A stretch of DNA of 63,956 nt, counting the filler, from Hausera hauseri (Eukaryota), in assembly GCA_046269625.1 (NCBI GenBank). It is 12 parts of 12 records of this genome, joined end to end, with 100 filler letters (N's around TTAATTAATTAA, not from the genome) between each part and the next. Parts side by side here need not be neighbours in the genome. Positions count along the whole stretch, not along the records: positions 33,984 to 38,540 come from JBJURY010528901.1; 11 more parts are not named here. The stretch is one strand, 5' to 3'. Below are positions 27,884 to 58,916 of the stretch, piece by piece. The notes under the pieces were generated by a model, which did no database searches, was not told where the DNA came from, and was given only the letters and a program-made list of their open reading frames with translations. How positions within the stretch are numbered: the stretch's first letter is position 1; each line of letters begins with the position of its first letter. The translations under genes and the position numbers were made by a program.

Positions 27884-28941
27884 TCTAACAAGGGAACTTA
27901 CCCTGCTGGTAGCCGGATTTTTAGTTGCCACCTATTTAGGAATATACCATTTTTGATGCTGATTGTGAATGTGAAAAAATTTTTTGCAATGGCGTCATGA
28001 TTGTTTTGAAAAATTAAATTTCATTTTAATAGAAAAATAACGGATTCATGAGAAATTAAATATTTTTTAATAATTTTATAAACAAATTTGTTTAAATATT
28101 TAATCTATTTATGCTACATTTTGATTTTTCTTTACATTTTGCTTTTAATTATGGCAACTGCTGCAAAATGGCATTTTTTGATCTGACAAATACTGCCTAT
28201 CAGGTTTGTTCAATTTAATGTCTATTTTTAAATGACGTTTTCATTTAAATCACATTGTTAGCCAGTTGTCGATTGTTCCATTTTGGCAAAAGGCATGTGT
28301 TGTTGACACGAATATTTCGCTCTATCCATCTGATGGAGTCGGTTGTAAAGGAGAAATTGTCTTTGAAGAGGAACCATTAGACACAGAAAAGGCTGTCGAA
28401 TCGATAATTAACGATGAAATTGACAGAGAAGAGGAAATCGTGAATTATGAATTGAACAAGACCGATGGCAAAGAAGTGGGAGTTGAGAAGATCCAAAATA
28501 TCATTCGGGCATTCGATCGAATGACAACATCGAAACAGCCAATGAAGAAGTAAAATCTCGACGAAGTGGTTTTGTATTGGTTTTTGTATTGTTTGTAGTT
28601 TCATTGCAGTAGGACTATGAATTGATTATGCCGCCGATTGATTCATTAGATCAGGATGTTATTCGAAAGAATATTCTCTTTAAACTTTTGAGGACGATGT
28701 TGGTTTTAAATTTTGCTTAATATTTTAAATTGTGTGGTGAATTTTGCGTTTTCATCTGCAGCAAATAATTTATCCCAGACATGCAGCTCATAGAGCAATT
28801 GTATCATATACTCATGTAGACAACTTTATATTTGTGGGTATTAAATACTCTCAGTCTTTCTGCCGTGTTTGATTGTAAATCTGGTGATCGGCAAACTATC
28901 AGAAGTCATTTTAATAATTATAATTAATTAATAATTAACAA
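27884..28941 (+). repeat. Copy 1 of a >=1.05-kb dispersed repeat starting TCTAACAAGGGAACTTACC (right end undefined)
   Basis: Colinear and highly similar to 32805-33883. Confidence 0.9.
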
Positions 28942-30268: not shown

Positions 30269-30700
30269 TTACATAAAATAAAAGTGTCCATGAGGTAATG
30301 TTGATATTCTATCTGCCTGAATAAATCGCTTGTCATCGAAGAAGCTAAGACCTTTCTTTCCTAGTACATTAGTTGTCACGACATGGTCATGTGACACAAT
30401 TCGTCGCATGTCTGACAAAAGAGTAGATTGATTGTTAAGGACCAAAATATATTCTTGAAACGAGATGTTTCTCCAGTGTAGCTCTCTGAACACCTTTGGC
30501 CTTTTTCTTAATTTGTCAATTCACATTAAGAGCGTATATTTTCGGGAAAAGTTCAACATAAGCAGTAATAATTTTGCTGCTTCTTTAATCCTTAAATTTT
30601 CCCCAAATTTTTTATTTAATATGGAGAAGTTTCTATAATTCCTTTGATAATCTGATGTGTCAAAGAAATGTAACAAATTATATGAATCACTGAATACGTC
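30269..30700 (-). pseudogene. Polinton pPolB C-terminal fragment
   Basis: DVFSD..LLHFFDTSDY, NKK..GKFKD, KKAKGVQR, LSFFDDKRFI..TLPHGH. Confidence 0.9.
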
Positions 30701-32136
30701 TGAGGTGCCTGCGTCGACCGTCGCCCTCTAACCATTCGGTTGGGCACGGCCGGGCTTCCGCTGCCGGCACGTCGGGCACATAGGCAGGCCCCCGATCTTC
30801 TGGTTCGAGACGTGCGGGATCCGATTAAATTAGAAAATATTTGACGTTGCTGTTTTTCAAAGATTCGCGAAAATGGAATTCAAGGAAACAAAAATATTGT
30901 TGGGAAAAGGTCGATGTGACTTAAGATAACTCATGGTATGTTATCCGAGCTTGCTACCAAAATCATACAATGATGATCCATACCATGAATTTGAAAACAT
31001 ATACAGTAACCAGGAAATGCTTCACATTCTTCCAAGTCCAACAGTGCCAAAGTTGGTCAAATGTGAAAATACAAACATCGATTTCCCACAGTTGAACATA
31101 CCCCGACTCATTCTCCAAGAACATAAAAATTTCATCCTGTTTCTCCACCAGCCGCTAAACTGTCAGATGATATATTATGTTCGAATTCTCCCGATTATAT
31201 TTCCCCAACCGGAGTGAATGCTCATAGTTGCACAGTAACCAAAATTCTTAAAAATACTTCAAGGTCAAACAAAAATTCTTTCCCAGTTTTTTAATACAGA
31301 CAATATTTTCAGAAGCAGGCATTTTGTTTCACAGATTACATTCTACGAATTTATCAATCGTCATTTTACTCGAATTTCGTGCCATCAGAATTAACAGAAT
31401 TTTTGAAATTTATTAACGCGGATATGTGGAATCCGATGGAAAGTTATTTTCTGAGACGTTGCGGACATTTGCAAACAGACTTCAGGTGCTCGTAGAAAAC
31501 GTTTGGTTGTTATATCCACGTTTTGTAATAATATTTCACTTACTTGTTAAACACATCTGATTATAATTTTGCGTAATATTTCGTTGTGATAACATTTTGA
31601 TTCGCTGTCGTTTTCCACGCATTTTAGGAATTTCGACATAGCTGGAGAATATTAATTATCGACACTACTCTAGTCGACTCAAACTTTGATCTAGACTCAC
31701 CGATTGTCAAAATTTTCGGCGCAGTCTCGAAATTTCACAAATTGGCAGACCAGTTCATAATCATAGAATTTTACTATATACTCCCGAATCAAACGACGTT
31801 TTCAGAGTAGCACATACTTGTTCAAAACTTTTATACGTAGTGATTGTTTGTGCCACACGACTTTAACTTCAAATTTGTAACACCTCGTATTTTCTGTACA
31901 AAAGTATCTCTGTTGATTTTCTCACTTGTGATTTAGTGCGAATTTAACTTTTGTTTTGTTTTAATAGTGTAAAAAATTTTTACAACCACGTGAAAAGTTT
32001 GATTTAAAAATACAAGTTAATTTACTAGCCATCTTAAATTTGGAGATTTTTTTATACCACAGACTGTTTTCAAATCTATCTTTTGGGATTTATATTGTGT
32101 CTATATTCGAATATTTATCAGTCAGATTTTATAACA
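30701..32136 (-). mobile_element. 1436-bp TG..CA insertion (probable solo LTR) inside pPolB
   Basis: The ends are TG...CA, flanked by ACGTC/GCGTC (5-bp target duplication, one mismatch). Removing the insert and one TSD restores MDTDSVIYHILSDDVFSD...DTSDY in frame. Confidence 0.75.
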
Positions 32137-32807
32137 GCGTCATCAGATAGAATATGATATATGACTGAATCCGTATCCATATACATTAATTGAATGTTTG
32201 GGAAATTGGGCTTCATCACATTGTAATGGAAGTCATACATGAGTATTTTTGACAAATCAAGTATCGACATTCCAACATAAATCGGCTTGCTGAAATTCAG
32301 AGTCAACTTTTGCATTTTGATACTAGCAAGATTTTCCGAATAAATAGTGCTGTGTAAAAATTTAGATTTGCAATTAAATTTTTTGCTCTTGTCCGGTCGT
32401 TGACCAGCTCAATTGACAGCCTATTTCTTGTATTCTCCATAGTTTTTCCAAAAACTGAGTTGTACAATTTGAATTGATCGTTTTCAAAATTGTTTGTCGC
32501 ATTTGTTCGAAGATCTGTATTGAATTGAATATAAGGTAATGCTCATAATATCTATGCTATCCGGATATTCTACCCACTTAAAATTATCGTGTGGGAGTCT
32601 GATACTCATTGTTCAACCATACAAGTTGTTAGTATTCAGATATGTGATGAAAAATGATAGTTTTGTTTCATTACAATTTAACATATACGTATTATTTACC
32701 TCTGCATGCCTATGGACTACCTGACAAATTCCTCTTCAATTCCCCCTTTCAAGCATCAACATAATATCATAGACCTTGAGTATATGCAATTTCACTCCAG
32801 TATATCT
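32137..32807 (-). pseudogene. Polinton pPolB palm fragment with an internal deletion
   Basis: RYTGVKL, RGICQVVHRHAE, YLNTNNLYG, then a jump to PYIQFNT..KLYNSVFGKTMEN, KPIYVGMSILDLSK and YMDTDS. Confidence 0.92.
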
Positions 32808-33883
32808 AACAAGGGAACTTACCCCGCTGGTAGCCGGGTTTTCAATTGCCACCTATTCAGGAATATACTATTTTTGATGCTGATTGTGAATATGAAAAAA
32901 ATTTTTGCAATGGCGCTATGATTGTTTTGAAAAAATTAAATTAAATTTCATTTTAATAGAAAAATAACGGATTCATGAGAAATTAAATATCTTTTTAATA
33001 ATGTTATAAACAAATTTGTTTAAATATTTAATTTTTTATGCTACATTTTGATTTTTCTTTACACTTTGCTTTTAATTATGCCAACTGCTGCAAAATGGCA
33101 TTGGTGGAACTGACAAATACTGCCTATCAGGTTTGTTCAATTTAATGAATATTTTTAAATAACGTTTTCATTTACATCATATTTTTAGCCTGGTTGTCGA
33201 TTGTTCCATTTTGGCAAAAGGCATGTGTTGTTGATACAAATATTTCGCTCTATCCGTCTGAATGAGTCGGTTGTAAAAGAGAAATTACCTTTGAATAGGA
33301 ATCAATAAACACAGAAAAGGCTGTCGAATCGATAATTAACGATGAAATTAACAGAGAAGAGAAAATCGTGAATTATGAATTGAACAAGACCGATGGCAAA
33401 GAAGTGGGAGTTGAGAAGATCCAAAATATCATTTGGGCATTCGATTGAATGACAACATCGAAACAGCCAATGAAGAAGAAAAATCTCGACGAAGTGGTTT
33501 TGTAATGGTTTTTATTGGTTTTTGTATTTGTATTGTTTGTAGTTTCATTGCAGTAGGACTATGAATTGATTAGGCCGCCAATTGATTCATTAGATCAGGA
33601 TGTTATTCGGAAGAATATTCTCGTTAAACGTTTGAGGACGATGTTGGTTTTGATTTTTGTTTAATTTAAATTGTGTGGTGAATTTTGCGTTTTTCATCTG
33701 CAGCAAATAATTTATCCCAGACATGCAGTTCATGGAGCAATTGTATCATATACCCATGTAGACAACTTTATATTTGTGGGTATTAAATACACTCCGTCTT
33801 TCTGCGGTGTTTGATTGTAAATCTGGTGATCGGCAAACTATCAGAAGTCATTTTAATAATTATAATTAATTAATAATTAACAA
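32805..33883 (+). repeat. Copy 2 of the dispersed repeat; it interrupts pPolB
   Basis: It begins exactly where the pPolB homology (…RYTG) stops and runs to the contig end. Confidence 0.9.
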
Positions 33884-33983: not shown

Positions 33984-34457
33984 CTTGTATTGGGAAAACA
34001 CCGAGTAGTGGTTTACACCGAATCGCCTCAAAACCAATGCGACATGGGAGTTGTAAAATTCTTTACCCAAATCCGTTTGTACATGTTTCGGTGATTGCTG
34101 TTGGTTTATTAATGTGTGAACAGCGCCGGCAACCTCTTTATCGGATTTATGTTTCACGGCAACTGCACGTTCAAAACGACTGAACACATCAATATACATC
34201 AGCGCGTACCGATACACATCGTTAATGCTGGCGTACGGAATCATTTCTATCAGATCCATTTGCCATGCATTACTTACGCTTGAAGCACGGTATGAATAAG
34301 TTGGAAACCGTTTTCTTCTTGGCTTGTGAAGGTTGTATGCCGACTGTTTCACCAGCCAACGTTTGGACTGTCGCTGACTCTGTTTGACAGTCTTTACCAG
34401 TTTGTTGACACCAGTATACCCGGCAGGATGACGCAGATCGAACCACACGTCGCTCAT
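33984..34457 (-). CDS. Polinton retroviral-like (rve) integrase, N-terminal part
   Basis: HPAGYTGV.KL, YNLHKPRRKRF, WQMDLIEM, IDVFSRF, VQTDLGKEFYN, NHYSVFS. The frame is open up to the contig end. Confidence 0.95.
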
Positions 34458-34599
34458 CGTTGTCGTCGGTGTTGTCAATAATGTCGTTTTTGTTAGCATT
34501 GCAGCAATTAGAACGAAATATTAATGAATGATTCGGTAAACTGGGACAAAATGATGAAAATAATGCGCCCATATAACTACATCATCATATACTTACCGT

Positions 34600-34933
34600 C
34601 ATTGTGTATACTAAAACTGTTCCGCCAATGATTACCCAGTAATGACGTGACAACGGGTACAATTTCACCAAGAAATTCGCTATATTGCTAGTACATGACT
34701 TCTCTTTTCAGTCGTTTACTACGAGCGTTGGCAAGGCCAATGAGTCGTTTTAGATACTTTAGTAAATTCCGCTTTCCATTACCAATGTCAACGTTACCCA
34801 CAACGATATTGTATAAAATTTCCATTAAATCGTCTACTACAAATTGCGAGAATGATCGCAGCATGTCCCGTTTATGTCTCAACGGTGCTTTAAGCAAAGC
34901 AATAAAGTGCGGTTAACTAAGTTTGGAACGCAT
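34600..34933 (-). pseudogene. Polinton small basic core protein (adintovirus pVII-like)
   Basis: MEILYNIVVGNV..GKRNLLKY.KRL..LA...KRLKRE...Q.SEFL..IVP matches the conserved small protein found between ATPase and integrase. It has two in-frame stops. Confidence 0.65.
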
Positions 34934-34985
34934 GATTCAATCAATAAATGAATGAACGAATATTGATGTATCTAATTGTAGTTGT

Positions 34986-35231
34986 TTACAATCGTTGCCA
35001 CCTTGATGAAAACCTGCGTCTCGCTGCTGATATCGTTCTTGTTGTTGTTATTGTTCAAAGCACAGAACTGATCAATCGCTTGACTGTAGCGTTGCGTTTT
35101 GATGTATTTGACGCACGTTTCTTCTTGGATAGCTGTTTGGTTGGTTTACGTTCAACGATTGTTTTACGGAAATTTTTCATTTTACTACTAATACTACTGT
35201 CGTGTCGATTTTCGAATTTGTTTTTAGACAT
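34986..35231 (-). pseudogene. Small Lys/Arg-rich protein downstream of the ATPase
   Basis: MSKNKFENR...KKKRASNTSKR...RWQRL*, with one internal stop. Position and composition fit a Polinton core-protein gene. Confidence 0.4.
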
Positions 35232-35241
35232 ATACACCTTT

Positions 35242-35885
35242 CTATTTGAAAATATCTGTTCGTACGCGCATGTCATCGGGATACTGTCGTGTAAAGTCAA
35301 TAAGCAGATATCCATGCGGTTTTTTCGTAGCATCATGATATGCATCTATCAAGTAGGCTTGGTGGTGAGGAAATGCTTGTCGTGCAACATAATCAATGAT
35401 AGTCTGATCACGGGGATTTTTGAACAACACCAAATAGTGTACGTTTGATTTCTTGTTCGATGCTGTCCGCCCTCATAAAACATGTTTTTCATAATGAAAA
35501 TAACCGTTGCGCTACGGTGCCGTGAAATCTTCGTGAACAGGTTGTTGAAGTCCGATTGTTTCGAGGCTTCCTAAAATAAATCGTCAATGACAATAACGTC
35601 ACCTTTGCGTAATCTCTCTGACCAGCTCTCATCAAACCCATCAAGTACCGTTATCGATTTCAGTTGACAAAATTCCCGATGTGTCAACCGGACTCAGCAT
35701 TATCACCAACACTGTGATGCCAGTATATGTGACTGTACCGCGGTGAATGGAACATGTCGCGGTAGTTCTGCATTAGTTTACACACAAAATGTGTTTTGCC
35801 ACTTGCACTGGGTCTACAATCTGGAAAATGGCATTATTCTGCAGCTTTACCTAATAATAGTAATAATGCAACCTTTCCTCACCAT
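35242..35885 (-). pseudogene. A32/FtsK-like DNA packaging ATPase
   Basis: Walker A (G)PSASGKT, Walker B VIVIDDLF, LFTKISRHR, LFKNPRD, PHGYLLIDF..RVRTDIF. Frameshifts and stops are present. Confidence 0.93.
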
Positions 35886-35914
35886 ATGATTTGTTTATAA
35901 TCGTGTTACACGCG

Positions 35915-35937
35915 TATAAATAACTATAGTATAAATA
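35915..35937 (+). promoter_or_regulatory. Two TATAAATA boxes in the divergent ATPase/TBP-like intergenic region
   Basis: TATAAATA at 35915-35922 and 35930-35937, upstream of the ATG at 35949. Confidence 0.45.
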
Positions 35938-35948
35938 CTGTTTCCATA

Positions 35949-36395
35949 ATGTTAGCTAATATCAACTATCGCGGACATGTTGCCGACTGTGACATGAACA
36001 CACTACCTTTTAATTCGTGGAAGCCGAGGCAGTACGTCCTCAATGTCCACCGGATTTTACATGCATCTTATTTCAATCGGAAAAGTGTCGTATTATGGGT
36101 TGTCGCAAACCAATCACATCTGATACACTACTACCATTCGGGATAGTTATTGACCAAATCCAATCAATAACGGTAACGACTCAGTTAGACTACCACCAAA
36201 CAATCAATCTGTACAAATTAGTAATGGCCACTACTGAATGTACATACGAACCCGAACTGTTTCCTGCACTGAGTCTGACATCGTTTTAACCACTGTGTGT
36301 CAATGTGTTTAGCAGTGGAAAAATTTTTGTACTTGGTATTTGAAGAGTGGACTATGAACCTATTATTAATCAAATTAAAAATCACATAAATATTT
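35949..36395 (+). pseudogene. TATA-binding-protein (TBP)-fold protein
   Basis: Repeat 1: LANINY...CILFQSEKCRIMG. Repeat 2: IQSITVT.QL..TINLYKL...YEPELFPAL....P..VNVFSSGKIFVLG (compare TBP YEPELFPGL...LIFVSGKVVLTG). One frameshift and two stops. Confidence 0.85.
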
Positions 36396-36475
36396 TACTG
36401 AATCAAAACAATATACATTGTACAACAACAACAAACTATACATACCACTCCAATGTCCCTTCAGACATTACTACC

Positions 36476-36736
36476 ATGGAAGACGACGACAACGACAAAA
36501 CGATTCTACTCAATGATGCCAATGATAAACGTTCAGATTGGTCGTGGTTATTTGGCTACAAAAAGGACAATTCTAATGTCAAAATGCTGGAACCACCTGT
36601 CCGACAATTAGAAAAACCGGGTGATTGTCTGCAGGCCGATTGTCTGGAAACGAAACAGGAACTTGTTCAGAAAGCCGCAGCAGCAGCAAAACCGACGTTA
36701 AAAAAACAAAATGCAATAATTGGAATAAGTAAATGA
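36476..36736 (+). CDS. Hypothetical protein
   Basis: Open frame MEDDDNDK...DWSWLFGYKK...KPTLKKQNAII* within the Polinton accessory block. No known motif. Confidence 0.35.
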   Translation: MEDDDNDKTILLNDANDKRSDWSWLFGYKKDNSNVKMLEPPVRQLEKPGDCLQADCLETKQELVQKAAAAAKPTLKKQNAIIGISK

Positions 36737-37266
36737 AAATCAAAACCGTCGGCGCGCCAAACACAGATATTTTTACAGAAACGAATTTTTCGCAAGTACG
36801 ATATGCATTTTCTGCAAACGCACATACTGATTTCATTGAATGATCTCGTGTCTCTATGTGCACCCAAGTACAGCTGTCGTGTGAAACGGCTTTCGGGTAA
36901 AAATTTGGATAAAACTACTGATGCTCTACATCAATTAAATGTGGATTTAAAGTTAAACGAAACCATCGTGCAATAGCATTCAGTCGATTTACCGGCACAG
37001 AAAACGAATTTGTTTCATTTTATCGGTCGCAAAATGTCTCATATACCCGATGGCGATGATAGTGGTTTAAAGTGTCGACTTAACATTGAATTGCAAAGAT
37101 ACAAGGAAAAAGCTGGTATCAGAAACCCGATTTGGCATGTAGCTGAAGCACATTTTAATTCTCAATAAATTTTGTTGTTGTTTTACCGTTCTTCTTCTTC
37201 TTCTTTCATCAACCCAAATAACAAGTATAAATATACGTGTAATTCTAAAAAATTGGCACAAGAATA

Positions 37267-37739
37267 ATGATAAAGAATGACGTAAAGATTATCTTAACAG
37301 ACGAAAATGCCTTTGTACCGAGACGTGTTACATCAAACAATGCAGGCTACGATGTGTTTTCCAATGTCAATTCGACAATTCCGGACAGCACAATCAAATG
37401 CATAACAACTGGGATTCGATTGGCGATTCCATCGGGTTACTAAGACCAACTTTTATCGAAAAGCGGACTGGCAAAGCTCGGACTGACGGTTGCGGGGGCG
37501 TTGTCATTGATTCAGATTTTCGTGGTGAAATTAAGGTGTTTCTGGAAAACCAATCCGGCGAACCGTATGCTTTTTCGAAAGGCAGTGCAATCTAACAAAT
37601 CGTTTTTCTTCGCTGTGAAGAGGCGGAATTCAGTGTAATGTCACCGGTACAATGGAAGTTGTTTTGTGTCAATGAATCAACGCGAAAATAACGCAAAGAA
37701 TTTTGCTTTGGTGATATGGACAAAACCAACTTTGTTTAA
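37267..37739 (+). pseudogene. dut: Trimeric dUTPase
   Basis: All five motifs occur in order: AGYDV, SKSGLA, VIDSDFRGEIKV, I*QIVF, and a degenerate R...FG. Stops and a frameshift are present. Confidence 0.92.
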
Positions 37740-37816
37740 TGATTGTGATAATAAAAATAACAGTTAGTTGTTTTGTTTGTGTTATAAACAAAAATTGATT
37801 TTGTACATGATAAGTA

Positions 37817-38303
37817 ATGGCGACAGGATGTATAGATATTGAAGCTTTCCAAGATCATAATGCTTGGTACCTGATAAAGGAATTATGCATTATGGACGTC
37901 ACTAACATTTTCGAACCACTTCTGTACATATTAAAGCCTGGTATTGTGTGGAAGGACCTGACGGAAAAGCGAAAATTACTAACGGATTTCTCTTTCTACA
38001 TTGTGATGGATTCATTGGTATGAAGGCAATTCAATTTTCTGTGAGATTTGTATTATGGAAGATATTTGTGATCGTTTTGACATTGAAAATACCACATTTT
38101 ACATTAAAGATAAAATTGGTGGACAAAAGTTTACACAACTCCATTGACAGTTTCCCGAGCTGCGAATGACGACTTATTCAACATCAAATAGCTCGCTGGC
38201 AATGGTACCTGACAATATCCGATGTCCGTATCGTGATCATGGAATGCATTGTGCTTATAAAAAAGGTCTAAGGCTTTGTATTGACTATATTTCATGCAAA
38301 TAA
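37817..38303 (+). pseudogene. DEDD/DnaQ-like nuclease of the Maverick-associated type
   Basis: IDIEAFQ....LIKELC, KP...W..L, H.WYEG, QK....FPELR, CPYRDH..HCAYKK. Frameshifted. Confidence 0.6.
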
Positions 38304-38640
38304 ATGTATACATATTTCTGTGTTTCTTTATTTCTTTCTTTCTTTCTGTAAAGAAGGTTTGTATTGGTCGAATAAATAGTTCAAAACTATGAATACGGGT
38401 ACGCGGTGAGTTAAAGAGCTTGAAAGAGAAAATAATGGGCAGTTTATGTGTGTACTATGTAAAGAAAAAAAGTCTATAGGGTATTCTTAATGTGCGACGA
38501 TCTCGTTGTTTGGCAAATGTTTTCCACCACCACCACCACCNNNNNNNNNNNNNNNNNNNNNNNNNNNNNNNNNNNNNNNNNNNNTTAATTAATTAANNNN
38601 NNNNNNNNNNNNNNNNNNNNNNNNNNNNNNNNNNNNNNNN

Positions 38641-39443: not shown

Positions 39444-42400
39444 ATGGTGAAATTTTATTTTTGCTTTTCAAAATAATTGATTGATTTTTAGATGTATAAT
39501 CTATACAAAGAGTGCTAGGCTCAAATCAACGAGCCCCAAAATGGTCACAACATTATGAAGAAATATTTCAGCCATCTATCCAACATGGCTGAGTATTATA
39601 TATGTTTTACATGTAAAGTAGTGTGCCAAACCAATTATGAAGACTTTTACAATGCCCATAAACAACGCCTGATTTCCTTTACCAAGTCGAAAAAACAAAT
39701 ATTCAATATCACTATGCCAATAATGACTTCCATGTATAAGCAAAATCAAAGATGCAGTTCATACGTGTATTGTACATGTGCAATACGCAACCCTCAGAAC
39801 TGTCATAATACCATGAGGAGCTACTACGGATACAAATCCAATAGGATCCTCTATTATATTTGCCGAGGATTTGAGGCTGTATATGATGGAGAATACATGC
39901 AGTTTTACGAAAATCATATTGCCCATTTGACAGACTTCACGTCAAAGACAAAGAAGGTCATCTTTAGTAAGCAGAAGCATAAGCCTGCTTCGGCAGCACA
40001 GCCAGTTGTACAGCTTGCTTCGGCAGCACAGCCAGTTGTACAGCCTGCTGCGTCAGCCAGGCCCCATGCAGGACTAAAACGTACAGCAGCAGCACCAGAT
40101 GCTCTACCAAAAGCCAAAGACAGCGGCCATTTGATGCAGTAGCATTAAAGAGAAAATGCTGCAGATATGTTATTGATGCAACAACCCTCCAAGACTTCCT
40201 CTTATGCACAAAGGACTAGACAGAGGGAATTCATTAGGACAACATGGGTCAGCTTAAAGTCCTTAAAGTCAATTTGAAGCTGGAGGCCACATACATCAAT
40301 GTTGATGGTGAAGAATCCAATAGGGTCTTCAAGACCAAAAATAGGCCAATATTGGGAAACACTAATATAGCAGAATGTCTGCAAGAGGTGCACTAGAAAC
40401 TGATACGTGAAGTCGGGGACAGCCAGGATGAGAAAAGCGGATGGCGTCTGGAAAACACCAAGAGATTGATTGTATATGTGCACAAGTAGTCCCCATGCCG
40501 GGCAGTTCGTATATTCAGCTCCCTGAATGGATAGTTAATAAAAAAGCATGCATCAGTGTCCATAGTAGAGACAACATATGTTTCGTGTATGCCATTCTAT
40601 CAAAACTCTTAACGGATCAAAAGCATGCTTACCGTGTTTGGCTATATAAGGATTTGCAGAACAACTATGACTTTCAATGTATTAAGTTCCCTCCATCCAT
40701 AGATAAAATCGAAAAATTTAGAAAAGTTAACAACATGTCCATCAATTACTTTGAATTGGAAGAGGTGAACAAATTCTATCCCCTGCAGATATGCGATACT
40801 GAATTGGAAGATCATAGGGCTTTGCTCCTACTAGACGATGGAGAAAAGAAACATTATATTTGGACAAAAGACTTTGAGAGGTTAGTAAGGTCCCAAATTA
40901 CGAAACAACATGGACAAATAGAAATATGGAAACAATGCTTGTCCCATTTGAGAGGCGATGTAACTGTATTGAAGCTTGCAGAGCGCAAGGTGTACTGCAA
41001 CAACAATTATTGTATCAGGCCAGAATTTCCCAAAGAGGACTACAGTGAACTCAAGGAGTTCGAGAAGAAGATCAAGGTCCCAATAGTTATCTATTGCGAA
41101 TTTGAGGCTATTCTGCGTCCAGTACAGAGCTGCAGTCTTAATCTCCAACATAGCACCACAACGGCATATCTATAATATGAACTTTCATCATATTTTATGT
41201 ATGCCAAAGGGACTGGACAGTGAACTATATCTATTCGGGGGTCCAGGCGCAGCAGCTTATTTCATAAAACCACTTGAAGACATGAGTCATAGGATTGGAG
41301 ATCTGCTGCAGCAGCATAAGGATACAATGAGTATGGTGAAGATGACGGAAGAAGAATGGCACATGGCAATATAATGTTACTTGTGATCCAAATCGTTTAC
41401 TAAGGATAATTATAAACTCAGTGATCACTGCCATTTTACAGGCATATATAGATGCGCGGCATGCAACAACTGAAATGTACACTGCAAAACATGTACATAT
41501 GTCCCAGTAGTGTTTCACAACCTCAGTGAATATGATTCCCATTTCATTGTTCGGGAACTGGGAAATACTGAAGGAAACCTTGATGTGATCCCAAGCAGTG
41601 ATGAGAAGTATATTACATTTACCAAGCATGTTGGGAAAATCTGGCTCCGCTTTGTAGACAGCTTCCGTTTCATGTCGTCTTCACTTGACAGTTTAGTTAA
41701 GAACCTCCCTGCAGAAGAACTGAAGGAGACAAAGGGGTTCTTCTCTACTACATTTGAACTAGTCAAGAGGAAAGGCCTGCTTTTCTATGACTATATAACC
41801 TCATGTGAAACACTGGATGAAACCTCACTGCCGGCCAAGAAGGACTTTTACAGTATCCTCTCAGATAGCAATATCAGCGACATGGAATACCAGCATGCTC
41901 AGAACGTCTAGCATGCATTCCAATGCCGAACATTAGGTGAATATAGCGATATATATCTCAAGACGGATGTGCTGCTTTTGACGGATGTCTTTGAGAGTTT
42001 CAGGGATGTTACGATGAAGAGCCATGCATTGGATCCGGCTTATTTCTTTACGGCTCTAGGTATGAACTGGGCAGCAATAGTGGGATATACAGGTGTCCGG
42101 CTGCAAATCATAGAGGATTATGACATGGTCCTCATGATTGAGAGAGGCATTAGAGGCGGAATATGCCAAGCCATTCACCGGTATAGTGAGGCCAACAACA
42201 CGTATATGGCCCAGTATGACCCATCCAAGGAATCCTCGTATATATCATACCTAGATGCCAACAATCTATGTGGTTGGGCAATGAGCGCTCCATTGCCATA
42301 TGATGACTTCAAGTGAGTCAAGCATCCTGAAAACATCCTTGTACTGGACCTGGATCCCACTGGAGGTACGGATTACATACTGGAGGTGGATATGGAATAT

Positions 42401-43452
42401 CCAACTTCTATCCACATAAGGCATTAACAGCTGTCTTTCCTCCGTGAGAGCAAGCTTCAGCCCCATGGAAAGCATAGAAAGCTCCTCTTCCATCTGGACA
42501 GTAAGGAGAGGTATGTTGTCGACTACATAAATCTTCATCAGACGGTTAGGTATGGATTCCACATTACTAAGATCCATGGGGCCCTGCAGTTCAGCCAGTG
42601 TCACTGGCTGCAGCCTTACATAAATATTTATACGAAGCTTCTGACCAATGCCAAGAACGACTTTGAGAAGGACCAGTTCAAGCTTTACAACAACAGCGTT
42701 TTTGGAAAACCATGGAGAATATCTGCAACAGGATCAACATCGAGTTGGTTTGTGAGTGGTAGCGGGCAACGAATNNNNNNNNNNCATTGCCAAGTCCAAC
42801 TTCCACAGTAGCACCATATATGCGGAGAACGTGGTCAGTATCTATATGCTGAAAACATATTTGAAATTCAGTAAGCCCATAAATGTGAGTATGGCAATAC
42901 TAAATCTGTGAAGAACCTTGATGTACCAATTCCACTATGACATCATGGTCCCCATATTCAAGTCCATACAGCTGATGCTTATGGATACTGATAGTTTCAT
43001 CTATCAAATCCATACTGAGGACACACATGCAGACTTTATTAAGTTAGCATAGCATATGGATACGTCTGACTATCCGAAGGAGCATCCCAACTATTCAATT
43101 ACCAACAAGAAAGTCCTTGTGAAATTCAAAAATGAGGCGATTGGGGCAATCATCTCGAGATCTGTAGATCTTAGGTCCAACATGTATGCCCTTGATGTAT
43201 GTGGCCAAGTAAAGAAGCGGGCTAAAAGGGTTTAAAGGACGACCTTAGCCAATAAGATTGGCTTCGACGACTGTTAGAGTTCTGCATGAGCAAACACACA
43301 TCATATCATAGATGCGAAGGATCCAGTGTAGGGATCATAACATTGATACAGTAGCATAACAGAAGAAAACCCTAAATTGGATGGACGACAAGAGGCAGAT
43401 CCTGGGTGATGGAATAAGCACACAACCTCACGGGCATGCTGCATTAATGTAA
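39444..43452 (+). pseudogene. Full-length Polinton pPolB polyprotein gene, decayed
   Basis: Tandem Cys/His repeats; PASAAQPVVQ linker; EKSGW; LPEWIVNKKAC..DNICF...HYIW; IYCEFEAIL; DHCHFTG..AACNN; FHNLSEYDSHF; YLKTDVLLLTDVFE; YLDANNL; KLYNNSVFGK; MDTDS; DDKR..PHGH. Confidence 0.95.
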
Positions 43453-44106: not shown

Positions 44107-44415
44107 GTGATCCCTTGGGAATGGAAAATTAAACTATTTTAGTTCTTCGTACGGGATATATGGCACTTTTACTATGAAGACCCTATGTATGAGCCATTCT
44201 CACAGATTCCTGGAGACGAACACGTTGTATTAGTAATTTAGCTTCCACAACATACATGTGAGGCTTAATTTCTGTTTCAGTACCACTTTTTGCATAATGA
44301 AAGATAGTTAGGCTATCATTTCTATGCATCTTGATTGTTAGATTGACACTGGGTATGCGATATTTCGGCTGCTGAAAAAATCCAAGTTTAATGGCCAACA
44401 TAATGTCATTGGAGC
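44107..44415 (-). pseudogene. Polinton major capsid protein (PY/hexon-like) internal fragment
   Basis: LNLDFF/QQPKYRIPSVNLTIKMHRN...AKLLIQRVRL..SV..AH..L....AIYPVRR...FSIPKG is the characteristic MCP mid-region. Confidence 0.8.
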
Positions 44416-48500: not shown

Positions 48501-49840
48501 TTCAGGTACAGGCAACTTGGTAGCGGATTTTCTATCGAGGTCGGTTGGCTCAATTACAACTGAGCCAATTTTCTCATCCTAAGTCTTAACGGCCAATCAA
48601 CCGTCTGCTGATTTCCTTAGCTCTTTCAAATCCTTCGAAATCATTGATGGCATTGCATCTGATACGTTAAATTTTGGTAACAAAAAGATCATTATAATTT
48701 CACCTTTACAAAAGCCAGCTTTTCTTCATACGCATTCCCTCAATCATCCGGGCTCGAAAGCAACTTTTCTCCTCTTCAACATCATATAGTTTTGCCATCA
48801 ATGCGCAAGGATGTACAGGGCTAGGTTAAGGAATGCGTAGCTTGTCAGAAATACAAAGTCAGTAAACATCTTAAACCGCCGCTTTATCATTTCCCCTGTA
48901 CATCACGTTTTCATACAGTTTATCTTGATCTCATTGGCCCTTTATTTTCTAAAAACGGGTATCAATATATCCTTACCATGATGGATCGTGCTTCTCGCTA
49001 GCCTCAAGCTATTCCTCTTCGTTTAACGAACACCAATTCAATAGCTGCCTCCTTTATAAAGATCTGGATCTGTCGTTTTGGTTCCCCACGTTAAATAATA
49101 ACGGATCAAGGTCCACAATTTGAATCGTAACTGTTCAAATCACTTACAAAACACTTAGGAATATCCCATTTCAATACAACACCATATCATCCTCAAGGAA
49201 ATGGCCTTCTTGAAAGGTTCCATCTAACAATGAAAATTTCTTTAAAAATCTTGGCTGACAATCATCGTTATTAAATGTCCATTCTACCTTTTGTTCTACT
49301 AGGATGGCGCAACACACCCTCAACCACTACCGGTTGTGCTCCATCCGAGGCACTCTTTGGGACTTCAATTAGGGATTTATTTGAATTTTCCGATCTCGAC
49401 GACAATCTCACAGACGAAAATATTCGTGCAGCACAATTTCATTTTGTCGAGGTGAGCTTGGACTCGTTCTGCCGTCTCTTTAATAATAACAAATGGTACA
49501 TTTCGATGGATTTATACTCGTTCGAGTTTGTGCGGCTAAAGGATCAATCGCCTTCTGGTTTAGACCCCAATATGTTGGTCCTTACAAACTCCTTAGTCTT
49601 TCATCTCACATAGCTACAATCTTAAACCAAAACAAACCTTACAACGTCCACATTTCGAATCTGAAGCCCGTTTTCTTCATTGTTGACAACCCGGTTGCCA
49701 ATTCTACCTCCGTTTCAAACTCAACCCCTACACCTTCTATTCCATACTCAAATTTTTTCCATGATTTTGCATCGTTACAGCAATCATCTTTCTGTCCCTC
49801 CATTTCATCATGTCCACCAATTTCATCAAAGCGCTAATGC
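45523..49840 (+). mobile_element. Ty3/Gypsy LTR retrotransposon, CsRn1-like lineage, decayed
   Basis: A degenerate tRNA-Trp-type PBS (TGGTTTGACCC at 45526) follows ...TACA. Gag has two CxYH..C..GC (CHCC) fingers. Protease FLI(D)SGA. RT: PWASPLH, CGDYRQLN, YIDDI. RNase H: DASATAIGAVL. Integrase: HPG, C..C, DLIGP, TDQG, YHPQGNG, GPY. Confidence 0.93.
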
Positions 49841-55018: not shown

Positions 55019-58000
55019 ATGGTAAGTTTTTTAATTGTCCTCCTCAAATAATTGATTGATTTTTAGATGTGCAAATTCTACAGCGAATGTTTGGCTCACA
55101 TGATTAAGCCTGAAAATTGCCACAGTATTATGAAGAAGTATTTCAGCCATATGTACAACAGGATTCAGTATTATATATGCCTACATGTGAGATAGTGTAC
55201 CAATCTAATTATGAAGACTTCTACAATGCCCATAAGCAGCACTTGATTTCCTTTACCAAGTCAAAAAACAAATATTTAGTACCAATATGCCAGTAACGAC
55301 TTTCATGCCAAAGAAAAATCGAGGGTGTAGTTCATATGTGTAATGCACATGTGCAATACACAGCCCTCAGAATTGCCACAATACCATGAGGAGCTATTAT
55401 GGTCACAATTCAATAGGACCATTTATTATATCTGCCCAGGATGTGAGGCTGAATGTGATGAAGAATACATACAGTTTTATGAAGATCACAAACATAATTT
55501 AACTGACTTCGCATCAAAGTCAAAGAAGATCATGTTTAATGAACATAAGCCTGCAATACAGCATGTAGTACCACAGCCTGCAGTACTACAGCCTGCAGTA
55601 CTACAGCCTGCAGTACAGCCAGGTGCGGGACTAAAACGCATATCAGGCGCATAAGGCGTAGAGGCTCCAACAAAATATCAAAGACTGTGGCCAATTGATG
55701 CTACAACATTAAAGAGGAAATACCCCAAATGTGTCATTGATGCAACTGGCCAAATAACCATCAAGGAGTTCTTAGAATACACAAAGGAAAAAACAGAGGG
55801 GATTCTTCAGGACAACATGACTGAACTCAAAGCCTTTAAAGTCAATATGAAACTTGATGCCACATGCGTCAATGTTGATAGCAAAGAGACCAGAAATAGA
55901 CCCGTATTGAAAAACACCAATATAGTGGAATGGCTTAATGAAAAACATGGGAAGCTGATCCGTGAGGACGATGATAGCCAGGATACGAAGAATGGATGGA
56001 CTCTATCAATCACCGAGAGATTGCTTGTGTATGTGCACAAGTACTCGCCCATGCGGGCAGCTCCTATATACGGCTTCCGGCATGCATCAATGTTCTTAAT
56101 GATGACATCAAGTGTTTCATGTATGCCATTTTATATAAACTCGTACGGGATCAAAAACATACCGCATATCGAGTTTGGCTATATAAGGATGAGCTGAACA
56201 ACTACGACTTCCAGTGTATCACATTCCCGCAATCCATAGATGAGATCAAGAAGTTCAGTCAAACCAACAATATATCAGTCAACATCTTTAGATTGGATGA
56301 GGAAGATAAATTATATCCCCTGCAGATATGCGATGTTGAATGGGAAGATCATAGGGATCTGCTCCTACTAGGCAATGGTGAAAAGAGTCATGTCATCTGG
56401 ATAAAGAATTTTGAGCGTCTAGTCAGATCCCAAATTACGAAACATATGGAAAGAATCGAAATATATAAACGAAACTTGTCTTATTTCAGCAGCAAGTTAG
56501 TTGTGGAGAAGCTTGCAGAGCACAAGATGTACTGCAACAACAATTACTGTATCAGACCAGAATTTCCCAAGGAGGACTACATTGAATTGAAGGAGTTCGA
56601 AAAAAAAATCAAGTTCCCAATATTGCGACTTTGAGGCTATTCTGCGTCCAGTTCAGACATGCAGTCCCAGTCCTCAACATAGCAACACAACGGCATACCA
56701 GTATCATGAACTCTCATCATATTGCATGTATGCCAAAGAACGTGATAGTAAACCATTCCTATACAGAAGTCCATGCGCAGCCGCACATTTCATGAAACGA
56801 CTTGAAGACATGGCTCATAGGCTTGAAAACATGCTTCAGAAGCATAAGGATAATATGAGCATGTCGAAGCAGCAAGAAGAAGAATGGCGCAAGGCAACAA
56901 CATGTTACTTCTGCGACAAGTCATTCACCATGGAAAATTAGAAAGTCAAGGATGATTGCCATTTTACAGGCAAATATCAAGGTGCAGCGTGACATAACTG
57001 CAATCTTCGTTGCAAAACATGCACATATATTCCGGTAGTGATCCACAATCTCAGTGGCTATGATTCCCACTTCACAGTCCGAGAGTTAGGCAACTTTGAT
57101 TGTAATATAGATGTCATTCCAAGTAGTAAGGAAAAATACATCACATTTACTAAACATGTTGGAAGAATCAGGCTTTGCTTCATAGACGGTTTTCGTTTCA
57201 TGTAGTCTTCAATGGATAGTTTAGTGAAAAACCTCCCACTGCATTTGACCTAGTTAAAAGGAAAGGCGTGTTTCCCTATGACTACATAACCTCATGGGAA
57301 ACATTGGATGAGACCTCATTACCACCTAAGGATGGCTTTTATAGCCAGTTGTCGGACTGTGATATCAATGATGAGGACTAGCAGCATGCTCAAAACGTCT
57401 GTCAGGCATTCCAGTGCCGCACAATAGGGGAATACAGCGACATATACCTCAAGTTGGACGTACTGCTTCTGACAGATGTTTTGAGAGCTTCAGGGATGTT
57501 ACAATGAAGAGCCATTCTTTGGATAGGCTCATTTCTTTACGGCTCCAGGGGTGAGTTTGGCAGCTATGCTGAGATATACCGGCATAAGGCTGTAGATCAT
57601 TAAGGATTATGATATGATCCTTATGATCAAGAAAGGCATTAGAGTCGGAATATACCAGGCCACTCACCGGTATAGCGAGGCCAACAACAAGTATATGGCC
57701 GAGTATGACCCATCCAAAGAATCCTCATACATATCATACCTGGATGCCAACAACTTTTATGGATAGGCAATGAGCGCCCATTGCTGTATGATAAATTCAA
57801 ATGGATCGAGAATCCTGATGACATCCATATATTGGACCTAGATCCCGCTGGAGATACCGGCTACATACTGGATGTGAACATGGAATATCTGGTTGCCATC
57901 CACGCAAGGCATCAACAGCTGCCTTTCCTCCCTGAGAGCAGGCCTCCGAACCATGGAAAGCATAGAAAGCTGCTCTGCCATCTGGGCAATAGGGAGAGGT

Positions 58001-58916
58001 ATGTAGTTCACCACATCAATCTCCAGCATGCAGTTAGACATAGACTTCGTATCACAAAGATCCATAGAGCCCTCCAGTTCAGCAAGTCCATGTGGCTGCA
58101 GCCCTACATAGATCTTAATACCAAGCTGCGGACTAATGCCAAGTACAATTTTCAGAAGAACCAGTTCAAGCTTTACAACAACTCGATCTTTGGCAAGACA
58201 ATGGAAAATATGCGCAACAGTATCAACATCGAGCTAGTATGTTACAGGAAGCGGGCAAAGGATCTCATTGCCAAGCCTAACTTCCACATCAGCATCATAT
58301 ATACGGAGAACTTAGTCAGCATCCATATGCTGAAAACATCCTTGGTGTTTAGCAAGTCCATATATATGTATGGCAATACTGGACCTATCAAAGACCTTGA
58401 TGTATCATTTCCACTACGACATTATGGTCCCCAAGTTCAAGTCCATGCAGCTCATGTATATGGATACTGATAGTTTCATCTATAAGATCCATACAGAGGA
58501 CTTTGCCCAATTGGCTCAGCACATTGATACCTCGGACTATCCGAATGATCACCCAAATTATTCAGTTGCCAACAAGAAAGCCCTTGGGAAATTCAAAGAC
58601 GAGGTGAATGGATCAATAATATCAAGATTTGTGGCTCTGAGATCTAAAATGTATGCCCTAAACGTATGTGGCCAGGTAAAGAAGCAGACAAAAGGGGTTC
58701 AAAGGGCTACATTGACCAAGAAGATCAGTTCTGAAGACTATGTGACAGTACTGCATGAGCAGACTCACATCATTTCAGAGATGAGACGGATCCAATCTAG
58801 GGATCATAATACCTATGCAGTAACTCTGCATAAGAAAAGTTTAGATTGGATGTATGACAAGAGGCAGATCTTCAGCGATGGAATACACACTACCTCATGG
58901 ACATGTGGAATTGTAA
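55019..58916 (+). pseudogene. Polinton pPolB polyprotein gene, decayed (same family as 39444-43452)
   Basis: Colinear with the 38641-44415 contig: Cys/His repeats, QPAVL linker, DDIKCF, DFEAIL, HNLSGYDSHF, YLDANNFYG, KLYNNSIFGKTMEN, YMDTDS. Confidence 0.95.

Follow-up and report, generated by a model that had tools for sequence, protein, structure and literature searches.

A window of 63,956 nt from the Hausera hauseri assembly GCA_046269625.1 (i.e., the whole stretch of DNA analysed here) consists of 12 unlinked parts joined by N-linkers. One of these parts, the ~4.5-kb contig JBJURY010528901.1 (positions 33984-38540, N-linkers on both sides), was identified to be a decayed Polinton fragment which carries the gene for a compact protein with a TATA-binding protein (TBP) fold. 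The contig holds both an rve integrase and an A32-like packaging ATPase, which are markers of Polinton/Maverick elements. Integrase, a small core-like gene and the ATPase locate to the minus strand, whilst the plus strand encodes the TBP-like gene, an orphan open reading frame (ORF), a member of a family termed F2, a dUTPase and a DEDD-like gene. Stops or frameshifts were found in every gene except the truncated integrase and the orphan ORF. As the contig is bounded by N-linkers, polymerase, capsid genes and termini are not linkable to its TBP copy.

An earlier note on this DNA, made from the sequence alone, had proposed a compact, divergent TBP-fold gene borne by a Polinton, and this proposal was borne out by protein family and fold comparison, by linkage, by phylogeny and by the substitution pattern. 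The unbroken ORF of the contig copy (36014-36286) matches PF00352 above the cut-off (E 1.4e-5, 25.2 bits versus 22.9) as well as the archaeal TBP 1mp9 (E 5.5e-6), and the intact protein of the related locus L002 reaches 65.1 bits with PF00352. Both motifs which the note had named, YEPELFPAL and VFSSGK, are present, and the copy is pseudogenised as stated there, with one frameshift between 36038 and 36050 and two in-frame stops (36287-36289 and 36341-36343). It cannot make protein and its value is that of a pointer to a family; since 31 of the 32 conserved family columns are retained, its decay is suggested to be recent. A search with the contig ORF revealed 17 relatives among 18 candidates, and a profile of 15 relatives matched 805 proteins at E <=1e-10, a set which may include cellular TBPs. 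The best 120 of these 805 matches are 44-87% identical to the closest intact relative, P0001 (P0001 itself aside) and mostly 144-165 aa long, and none of these 120 comes from NCBI or UniRef. Within a representative library, 49 clusters were found at E <=1e-30, and intact family members comprise ~145-170 aa.

Intact copies linked to Polinton genes were obtained from a metagenome scan, in which 83 stretches were confirmed and 80 kept as loci. A core Polinton gene was found in 34 of the 80 loci and in 24 of the 32 loci of at least 3 kb, the remaining eight of the latter carrying accessory families common to the linked loci. Related loci also gave DNA_pol_B_2 and Peptidase_C5 matches, neither of which occurs on the 4.5-kb contig, and contain the families F9, F15 and F20, which have no Pfam match and which we take to be capsid or penton genes from their size, their position and general knowledge of such elements. 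The ratio of nonsynonymous to synonymous substitutions (dN/dS, Nei-Gojobori) was 0.10-0.44 in 17 disjoint pairs (dS 0.1-1.5), with a median of 0.22 and a maximum of 0.50 over all 88 pairs; judged by these values of about 0.2, the TBP-like family is under purifying selection. Loci L079-L081, which are cellular-type TBPs, and locus L001 were excluded from these and the motif counts below. In a tree which was built quickly and left unrooted (79 rows, no TRF2/TLF among them, as a search had returned mostly plant TBPs), a branch of 1.32 with SH-aLRT 100 separates 63 family rows from the other 16, which are eukaryotic, archaeal or NCLDV-like (NCLDV, nucleocytoplasmic large DNA viruses); a broken TBP-like copy from locus L046 sits on a long branch. 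This is a real, conserved, Polinton-borne TBP-fold family, of which the contig copy is a pseudogene.

The fold was modelled with AlphaFold2 for P0001 on the basis of a 112-row alignment (predicted local distance difference test, pLDDT, 96.6). The top five VIA structure matches of this model are TBP chains (Z 11.3-13.7, 147-149 residues aligned), whereby the best reached Z 13.7 with a root-mean-square deviation of 2.7 and 147 of 149 residues aligned; the next unrelated row follows at Z 6.7, and Foldseek concurs on TBP (E 2e-9). In the model the two C-lobe helices are present and N-lobe helices 1 and 2 are both missing, with hhalign placing a 12-residue gap at the position of N-lobe helix 2. Members of a second deep clade (clade B) are longer and, according to the alignment, retain helix-length sequence in the N-lobe. 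In the passages of PMC7221094 considered here, the basic patch for TFIIA, Mot1, TAF1 and Brf is assigned mostly to helix 2 of the TBP N-lobe and the TFIIB contact to two C-lobe glutamates, C.L3.2 and C.L3.4, from which most viral TBPs differ (glutamate in ~40% at C.L3.2). The corresponding glutamates E97 and E99 are retained in 107 and 111 of the 112 family rows. No Pfam match to TFIIB was found in 125 locus ORFs (47 in a first scan and 78 of 101 listed ORFs in a second, from which ORFs scanned before and those close to them were omitted), whereby partial loci were scanned and a TFIIB of divergent sequence could escape such a scan.

The residues of TBP which face the DNA are defined by TBP structures, and Arabidopsis TBP (P0377) served as reference for their comparison. 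The intercalating aromatics, described as retained in the earlier note, are kept in three of four Phe columns (111, 111 and 112 of 112 rows), but the first Phe is lost in either register, the column holding Pro in 111 of 112 rows if the register is set manually and Phe in just 19 of 112 if it is set by MAFFT. In the latter case the contig copy has Tyr in the aligned Cys/Tyr/Phe/Ile column. Next to this loss, N6, Q27, R46, M48, S71, R105 and N115 were identified as near-invariant residues which are new relative to cellular TBP. Common to both clades are N6, P25, Q27, R46, M48, S71 and R105, where cellular TBP has other residues; within clade B, N6, Q27, R46, M48, S71 and R105 are nearly fixed (12-13 of 13 rows) and N115 occurs in 9 of 13. 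On this comparison the DNA-binding face appears to be rewired family-wide, in both clades, and as helix loss appears confined to the nearer clade, the rewiring would be older than the loss of the helix.

Two upstream patterns were first noticed in the 80 nt before gene starts and then counted in 100-nt windows, with near-duplicates of >75% identity collapsed and without those genes which lie too close to the end of a contig. On the sense strand, YATAAAC precedes 66 of 76 virion/packaging genes (29 loci), and the antisense count is 0; when DEDD-like genes are included, the figures are 75 of 88 sense and 0 antisense, with dinucleotide shuffles giving a mean of 3.4 and a maximum of 9. Both deep clades contribute (35 of 44 and 31 of 32 virion/packaging genes), and YATAAAA/G/T is rare at the same genes, C at position 7 being nearly fixed. 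In the form YATAAAC(A/G) the box precedes presumed capsid genes as well as those for ATPase, integrase, protease and PLA2, its distance to the ATG being most often 30-49 nt, and it was found before 18 of 19 related ATPase genes versus 1 of 54 TBP-like genes. The latter have canonical TATA-type boxes instead (22 of 54 versus 8.0 in shuffles), and the TBP-like and SSB-like genes together (SSB, single-stranded DNA-binding protein) show such boxes in 31 of 67 cases versus 9.5 expected and an initiator-like TCA(T/C)T in 46 of 67 versus 23.5 expected. The TBP-bearing Polintons are thereby read to possess two promoter classes, canonical TATA with TCA(T/C)T on the one hand and YATAAAC on the other. 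As a separate observation, CCAAT-box-like CCAATC and GATTGG are enriched before TBP-like/SSB-like genes (8 of 67 and 9 of 67 versus 0.6 and 1.3).

Considering these data, we hold it to be probable that the compact TBP-fold protein of this Polinton lineage serves the element as a late-promoter factor of its own, working like the TBP mimic (vTBP) of herpesviruses. The suggested mechanism assumes that host TBP would initially transcribe the TBP-like gene early, from its host-type promoter. The viral TBP-like protein would then bind YATAAAC through its rewired saddle, whereby host TFIIB and RNA polymerase II (Pol II) would be recruited via the retained Glu-Pro-Glu stirrup of the C-lobe, and virion and packaging genes would finally be switched on after expression of the TBP-like protein itself. 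As the nearer clade lost N-lobe helix 2, an escape from control by Mot1, TAF1, TFIIA and Brf was proposed. In TBP it is the N-lobe that supplies the second intercalating Phe pair. This pair inserts between TATA positions 7 and 8, as given in the consulted part of PMC1935006. Since the box differs at position 7 and both the lost Phe and several of the new residues fall into the N-lobe, the family is suggested to read YATAAAC. The idea of the earlier note that host initiation is redirected is supported insofar as a dedicated box lies before virion genes, whereas sequestering of the host machinery, likewise named there, found no direct support.

Several points weigh against this assignment. The register which places Pro at the first Phe was set manually; MAFFT put column 28 (Cys/Tyr/Phe/Ile) there and the hhalign alignment did not cover the position. 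YATAAAC is also found before two genes for which late expression is not obvious, namely integrase (11 of 13 cases) and, in 9 of 12 cases, the DEDD-like gene, it is one base off the host TATA box, and 26 of 205 unique boxes are followed within 10 nt by an upstream stop codon. The contig itself has four YATAAAC boxes, a number which does not exceed that of shuffles (mean 2.5). The pooling of gene classes took place once the motif had been seen, and the loci are related, so that the motif counts are not independent. IMG/VR scans with the ATPase, the presumed capsid protein and the PolB found elsewhere in the window gave no Polinton relatives, hence no TBP-less comparison; all box counts thus come from TBP-bearing loci, so that the box is only putatively dependent on the gene. 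Another IMG/VR scan returned one NCLDV-type TBP locus. Finally, the loci seen are partial, with no complete element among them, and a divergent viral TFIIB is possible.

Among the other explanations, host TBP might read YATAAAC as a weak TATA variant, the viral protein being a decoy which titrates TFIIB or occupies host promoters. The near-invariant TFIIB-contact glutamates would suit such a decoy, as would a box one base from TATAAAA which in half of the clade B cases is CATAAAC, but the near-fixed C at position 7, with A/G/T variants rare, and the invariant new polar residues of the DNA face in both clades are left unexplained, so that we regard this explanation as unlikely. Slightly less probable still is a role of the protein in replication, integration or packaging, in which it would bind DNA (e.g., the termini) together with its SSB-like neighbour whilst another viral factor reads the box. 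In 23 loci an F2-family gene was found close to the TBP-like one, and clade B loci contain C2H2 zinc-finger and KilA-N genes, the products of which could bind DNA. However, where these genes were seen, the loci were of clade B type, whereas both clades have the box and the TBP-like gene, and it is not evident what a retained TFIIB stirrup would do in replication. That YATAAAC is no promoter element at all, but a 3'-end, polyadenylation or stop-codon context signal, we consider improbable: the motif contains TAA, with the boxes close to upstream stops fitting such a signal, and 110 of the 205 boxes lie inside a same-strand ORF, but 58 of the 205 sit 30-49 nt before the next ATG. Moreover, of the virion genes for which no tandem upstream gene was recognised, 23 of 29 have the box, as compared with none of 26 TBP genes which do have such a neighbour, and the box precedes the head-to-head ATPase of the contig, which has no same-strand gene directly upstream; YATAAAC is hence not tied to an upstream gene. 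A host TBP/TRF retrocopy landed in the element, or a chance resemblance, to which the intronless and here broken gene and a tree without TRF2/TLF might point, has next to no probability, as it is refuted by Polinton linkage in many independent loci and dN/dS of about 0.2, by the long and fully supported branch which separates the family from cellular and NCLDV-like TBPs and by the 44-87% identity to P0001 of intact relatives (among the matches listed) versus 22-28% for solved cellular TBPs.

The features of the contig are collected in Table 1.

Table 1. Features of contig JBJURY010528901.1, in window coordinates.
Feature	Position	Strand	Basis
rve integrase, 5' part, cut by contig end	33984..34457	-	Pfam rve E 1.9e-10; 54% identity to L046 integrase
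Small basic core-like ("pVII-like") gene, broken	34643..34933	-	Locus-family F3 profile E 1.2e-20
A32-like packaging ATPase, several frames, broken	35218..35852	-	Pieces 50-76% identical to nearer-clade ATPases
TATAAAC box facing ATPase, candidate late promoter	35893..35899	-	47 nt before first homologous ATPase codon
Two canonical TATAAATA boxes facing TBP-like gene	35915..35937 (starts 35915, 35930)	+	34 and 19 nt before its ATG
Compact two-lobed TBP-like pseudogene	35949..36403	+	PF00352 above cut-off; 73% and 76% identity to intact P0001 in two pieces
Orphan acidic/basic ORF, in frame with 3' part of TBP-like gene	36476..36736	+	
F2-family member, broken; usual neighbour of TBP-like gene	36758..37150	+	F2 profile E 2e-12 and 8e-5
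Third TATAAATA box	37226..37233	+	41 nt before dUTPase ATG
dUTPase, broken	37267..37638	+	Pfam dUTPase in two pieces, E 0.008 and 0.005, neither reaching the cut-off
TATAAAC box	37783..37789	+	34 nt before DEDD-like gene
DEDD/Maelstrom-like nuclease-fold gene, three pieces	37817..38303	+	F4 profile E 6e-14, 2e-12, 2e-8

The gap between ATPase and TBP-like gene, given as ~60 bp in the earlier note, amounts to ~97 bp when the ATPase start is set by homology (~35852). The two boxes described within this gap are present, but both lie on the plus strand, directed at the TBP gene, whilst it is TATAAAC that is found on the side of the ATPase. The head-to-head layout as such exists here but is local, as ATPase and TBP-like gene share one strand in 22 of 24 related loci, and the weight once placed on a divergent TATA pair is not supported. 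A 32-nt intron after an ATPase ATG at 35889 was considered and dropped, that ATG being just 10 nt from the TATAAAC box. One-mismatch versions of YATAAAC stand before the pVII-like gene and before a small ORF ahead of the integrase.

The gene assignments of the note for the minus-strand integrase and for the ATPase, pVII-like and DEDD-like pieces agree with the matches in Table 1, the last three to families of related loci; an intact relative of the ATPase gave a Pox_A32 Pfam match. The dUTPase is backed by its two weak pieces, both short of the cut-off, and had no tblastn match among 81 related loci. For the small basic core-like gene no Pfam family was found, "pVII" being a label taken from the earlier note only, and the orphan ORF gave neither a Pfam family above cut-off nor a tblastn match in related loci. 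No Pfam family was obtained for the DEDD-like family, the best ESM Atlas clusters of which are unnamed and mostly arthropod, with Maelstrom at 0.87 only, and the DEDD/Maelstrom fold label is a lead only. A small Met-Gly ORF (34270-34572, minus strand) precedes and overlaps the integrase start and is likewise found upstream of the integrase in L039, L046 and L028; its product is possibly myristoylated, if the motif is taken at face value. Near the integrase ATG a CC motif was seen in the window and in several loci.

Regarding the neighbours of the TBP-like gene, the F2 member is tentatively a T7 gp2.5-type SSB protein. The related family F18 gave fold matches to African swine fever virus CP312R (Z 9.3) and T7 gp2.5 (Z 8.9), whereby F2 and F18 are but weakly linked (hhalign probability 18%, E 0.0014); searched against PDB sequences, the F2/F18 profile gave no match, and ESM Atlas gave nothing usable for F2 (top 0.86). 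In L008, L009, L010, L013, L016 and L027, ORFs of family F8 end with ...QVI/QVF just before F2, which resembles a read-through splice donor, and a single SSB-like gene may comprise F8 and F2 as its two exons. In clade B (L059-L072, L078), a conserved ~95-aa acidic/aromatic ORF, F7, directly precedes the TBP-like gene in 11 loci and is a candidate partner.

Elsewhere in the window, four broken Polinton-type pPolB stretches (17749-20904 and 30281-32533, minus strand; 40483-43232 and 56038-58876, plus strand) and a presumed capsid fragment (44108-44395, minus strand) were observed; as they lie on other contigs, none is linkable to the TBP contig. A retroelement-like contig (45000-49850) has an rve-like match at 48873-49490 and, by eye, protease/RT-like ORF pieces (RT, reverse transcriptase). 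One contig carries a stretch twice in similar form, at 28236-28625 and 33161-33558, with near-identical ORF translations, and 4390-8800 is occupied by a long satellite of low complexity which has a periodicity of 8/12 nt and a strong AT skew.

In comparison with known systems, the elements share integrase, packaging ATPase, protease, pPolB and PLA2 with adintoviruses and other midsize eukaryotic linear dsDNA (MELD) viruses, as described in the passages of PMC8502044 covered here, where the adintovirus maps also bear dUTPase, MAEL and SSDBP labels. Those passages carry no TBP label for the animal adintovirus maps (the comparison covering text rather than figures) and no analysis of a TBP protein or of promoters, but the legend of Fig. 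5 uses the label "TBP" for non-animal MELD viruses (Starrett et al. 2021, PMC8502044). Known here by its label only, that MELD TBP may belong to the Polinton TBP-like family. It is the sole Polinton-related TBP mention found in the literature consulted, as far as the covered parts go, the main text of the other Polinton papers searched mentioning neither TBP nor TATA (subscription papers, Repbase reports and preprint supplements being outside this search). Novelty is a little reduced by this label, and no fuller description was found in the parts of these sources consulted. In the literature searched, the timing of Polinton capsid genes is not described; a dedicated factor together with a dedicated box renders late timing testable and would argue for a programmed viral cycle without helper virus.

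The known kind to which the protein belongs is that of viral TBP mimics, among which the Polinton family is a new variant, being neither a canonical TBP nor a herpesvirus vTBP. With cellular TBP (PF00352; PDB 5fur, 7o4i, 1mp9) it shares a saddle of two lobes (Z 13.1-13.7), three of the four Phe which intercalate, the EPE stirrup of the C-lobe and the conserved Gly after strand 5 of each lobe. Unlike cellular TBP, it is ~30 residues shorter in the nearer clade, lacks N-lobe helices 1 and 2 in the model as well as the first Phe, and has invariant polar residues at several DNA-facing positions, at about 20-28% identity. NCLDV TBPs are likewise TBP-like proteins of dsDNA viruses which keep the L5.1 Phe and are without the N-lobe regulator-binding signature, as far as described in the consulted text of PMC7221094, in which Polintons go unmentioned. 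According to the same text, these viruses mostly encode their own TFIIB and vary at C.L3.2/C.L3.4, whereas the Polinton family keeps its glutamates; in the tree it does not group with NCLDV-like rows. The protein may thus be regarded as a natural experiment in TBP minimalism, in which the TFIIB-binding stirrup is separated from the regulator-binding helix and TATA specificity appears changed.

By analogy, the system that the Polinton protein works like is most likely the beta/gammaherpesvirus vTBP, for which ORF24 of KSHV (the herpesvirus associated with Kaposi's sarcoma) has been described, in the portion of the preprint considered (10.1101/2025.08.25.672222), to place TBP-like Phe and a polar-rich interface on late TATT promoters. 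On that partial account, both are viral TBP mimics with a polar-rich DNA face and a one-base-variant TATA box before late genes. The two differ in that KSHV ORF24 comprises 752 aa and binds Pol II directly with viral partners, its model being described as incompatible with direct TFIIB binding (10.1101/2025.08.25.672222, same portion). Herpesvirus vTBPs (ORF24/BcRF1/UL87) are large and multidomain with a Pol II-binding N-terminal domain, whereas the Polinton protein is a ~150-aa saddle only which keeps the TFIIB stirrup, and the herpes proteins gave weak fold matches to the P0001 model (E 3e-3 or worse). The wider proposal, which we consider evenly balanced, is that a broad Polinton lineage runs an early/late transcription cascade of its own, the factor of which, a YATAAAC-specific saddle of ~150 aa, would be the smallest two-lobed viral TBP known, would use host TFIIB directly and would have shed the regulator surface. 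If true, these Polintons would possess, in one gene, a counterpart to the late initiation complex which herpesviruses build from six proteins, and TBP and promoter would form a natural orthogonal pair.

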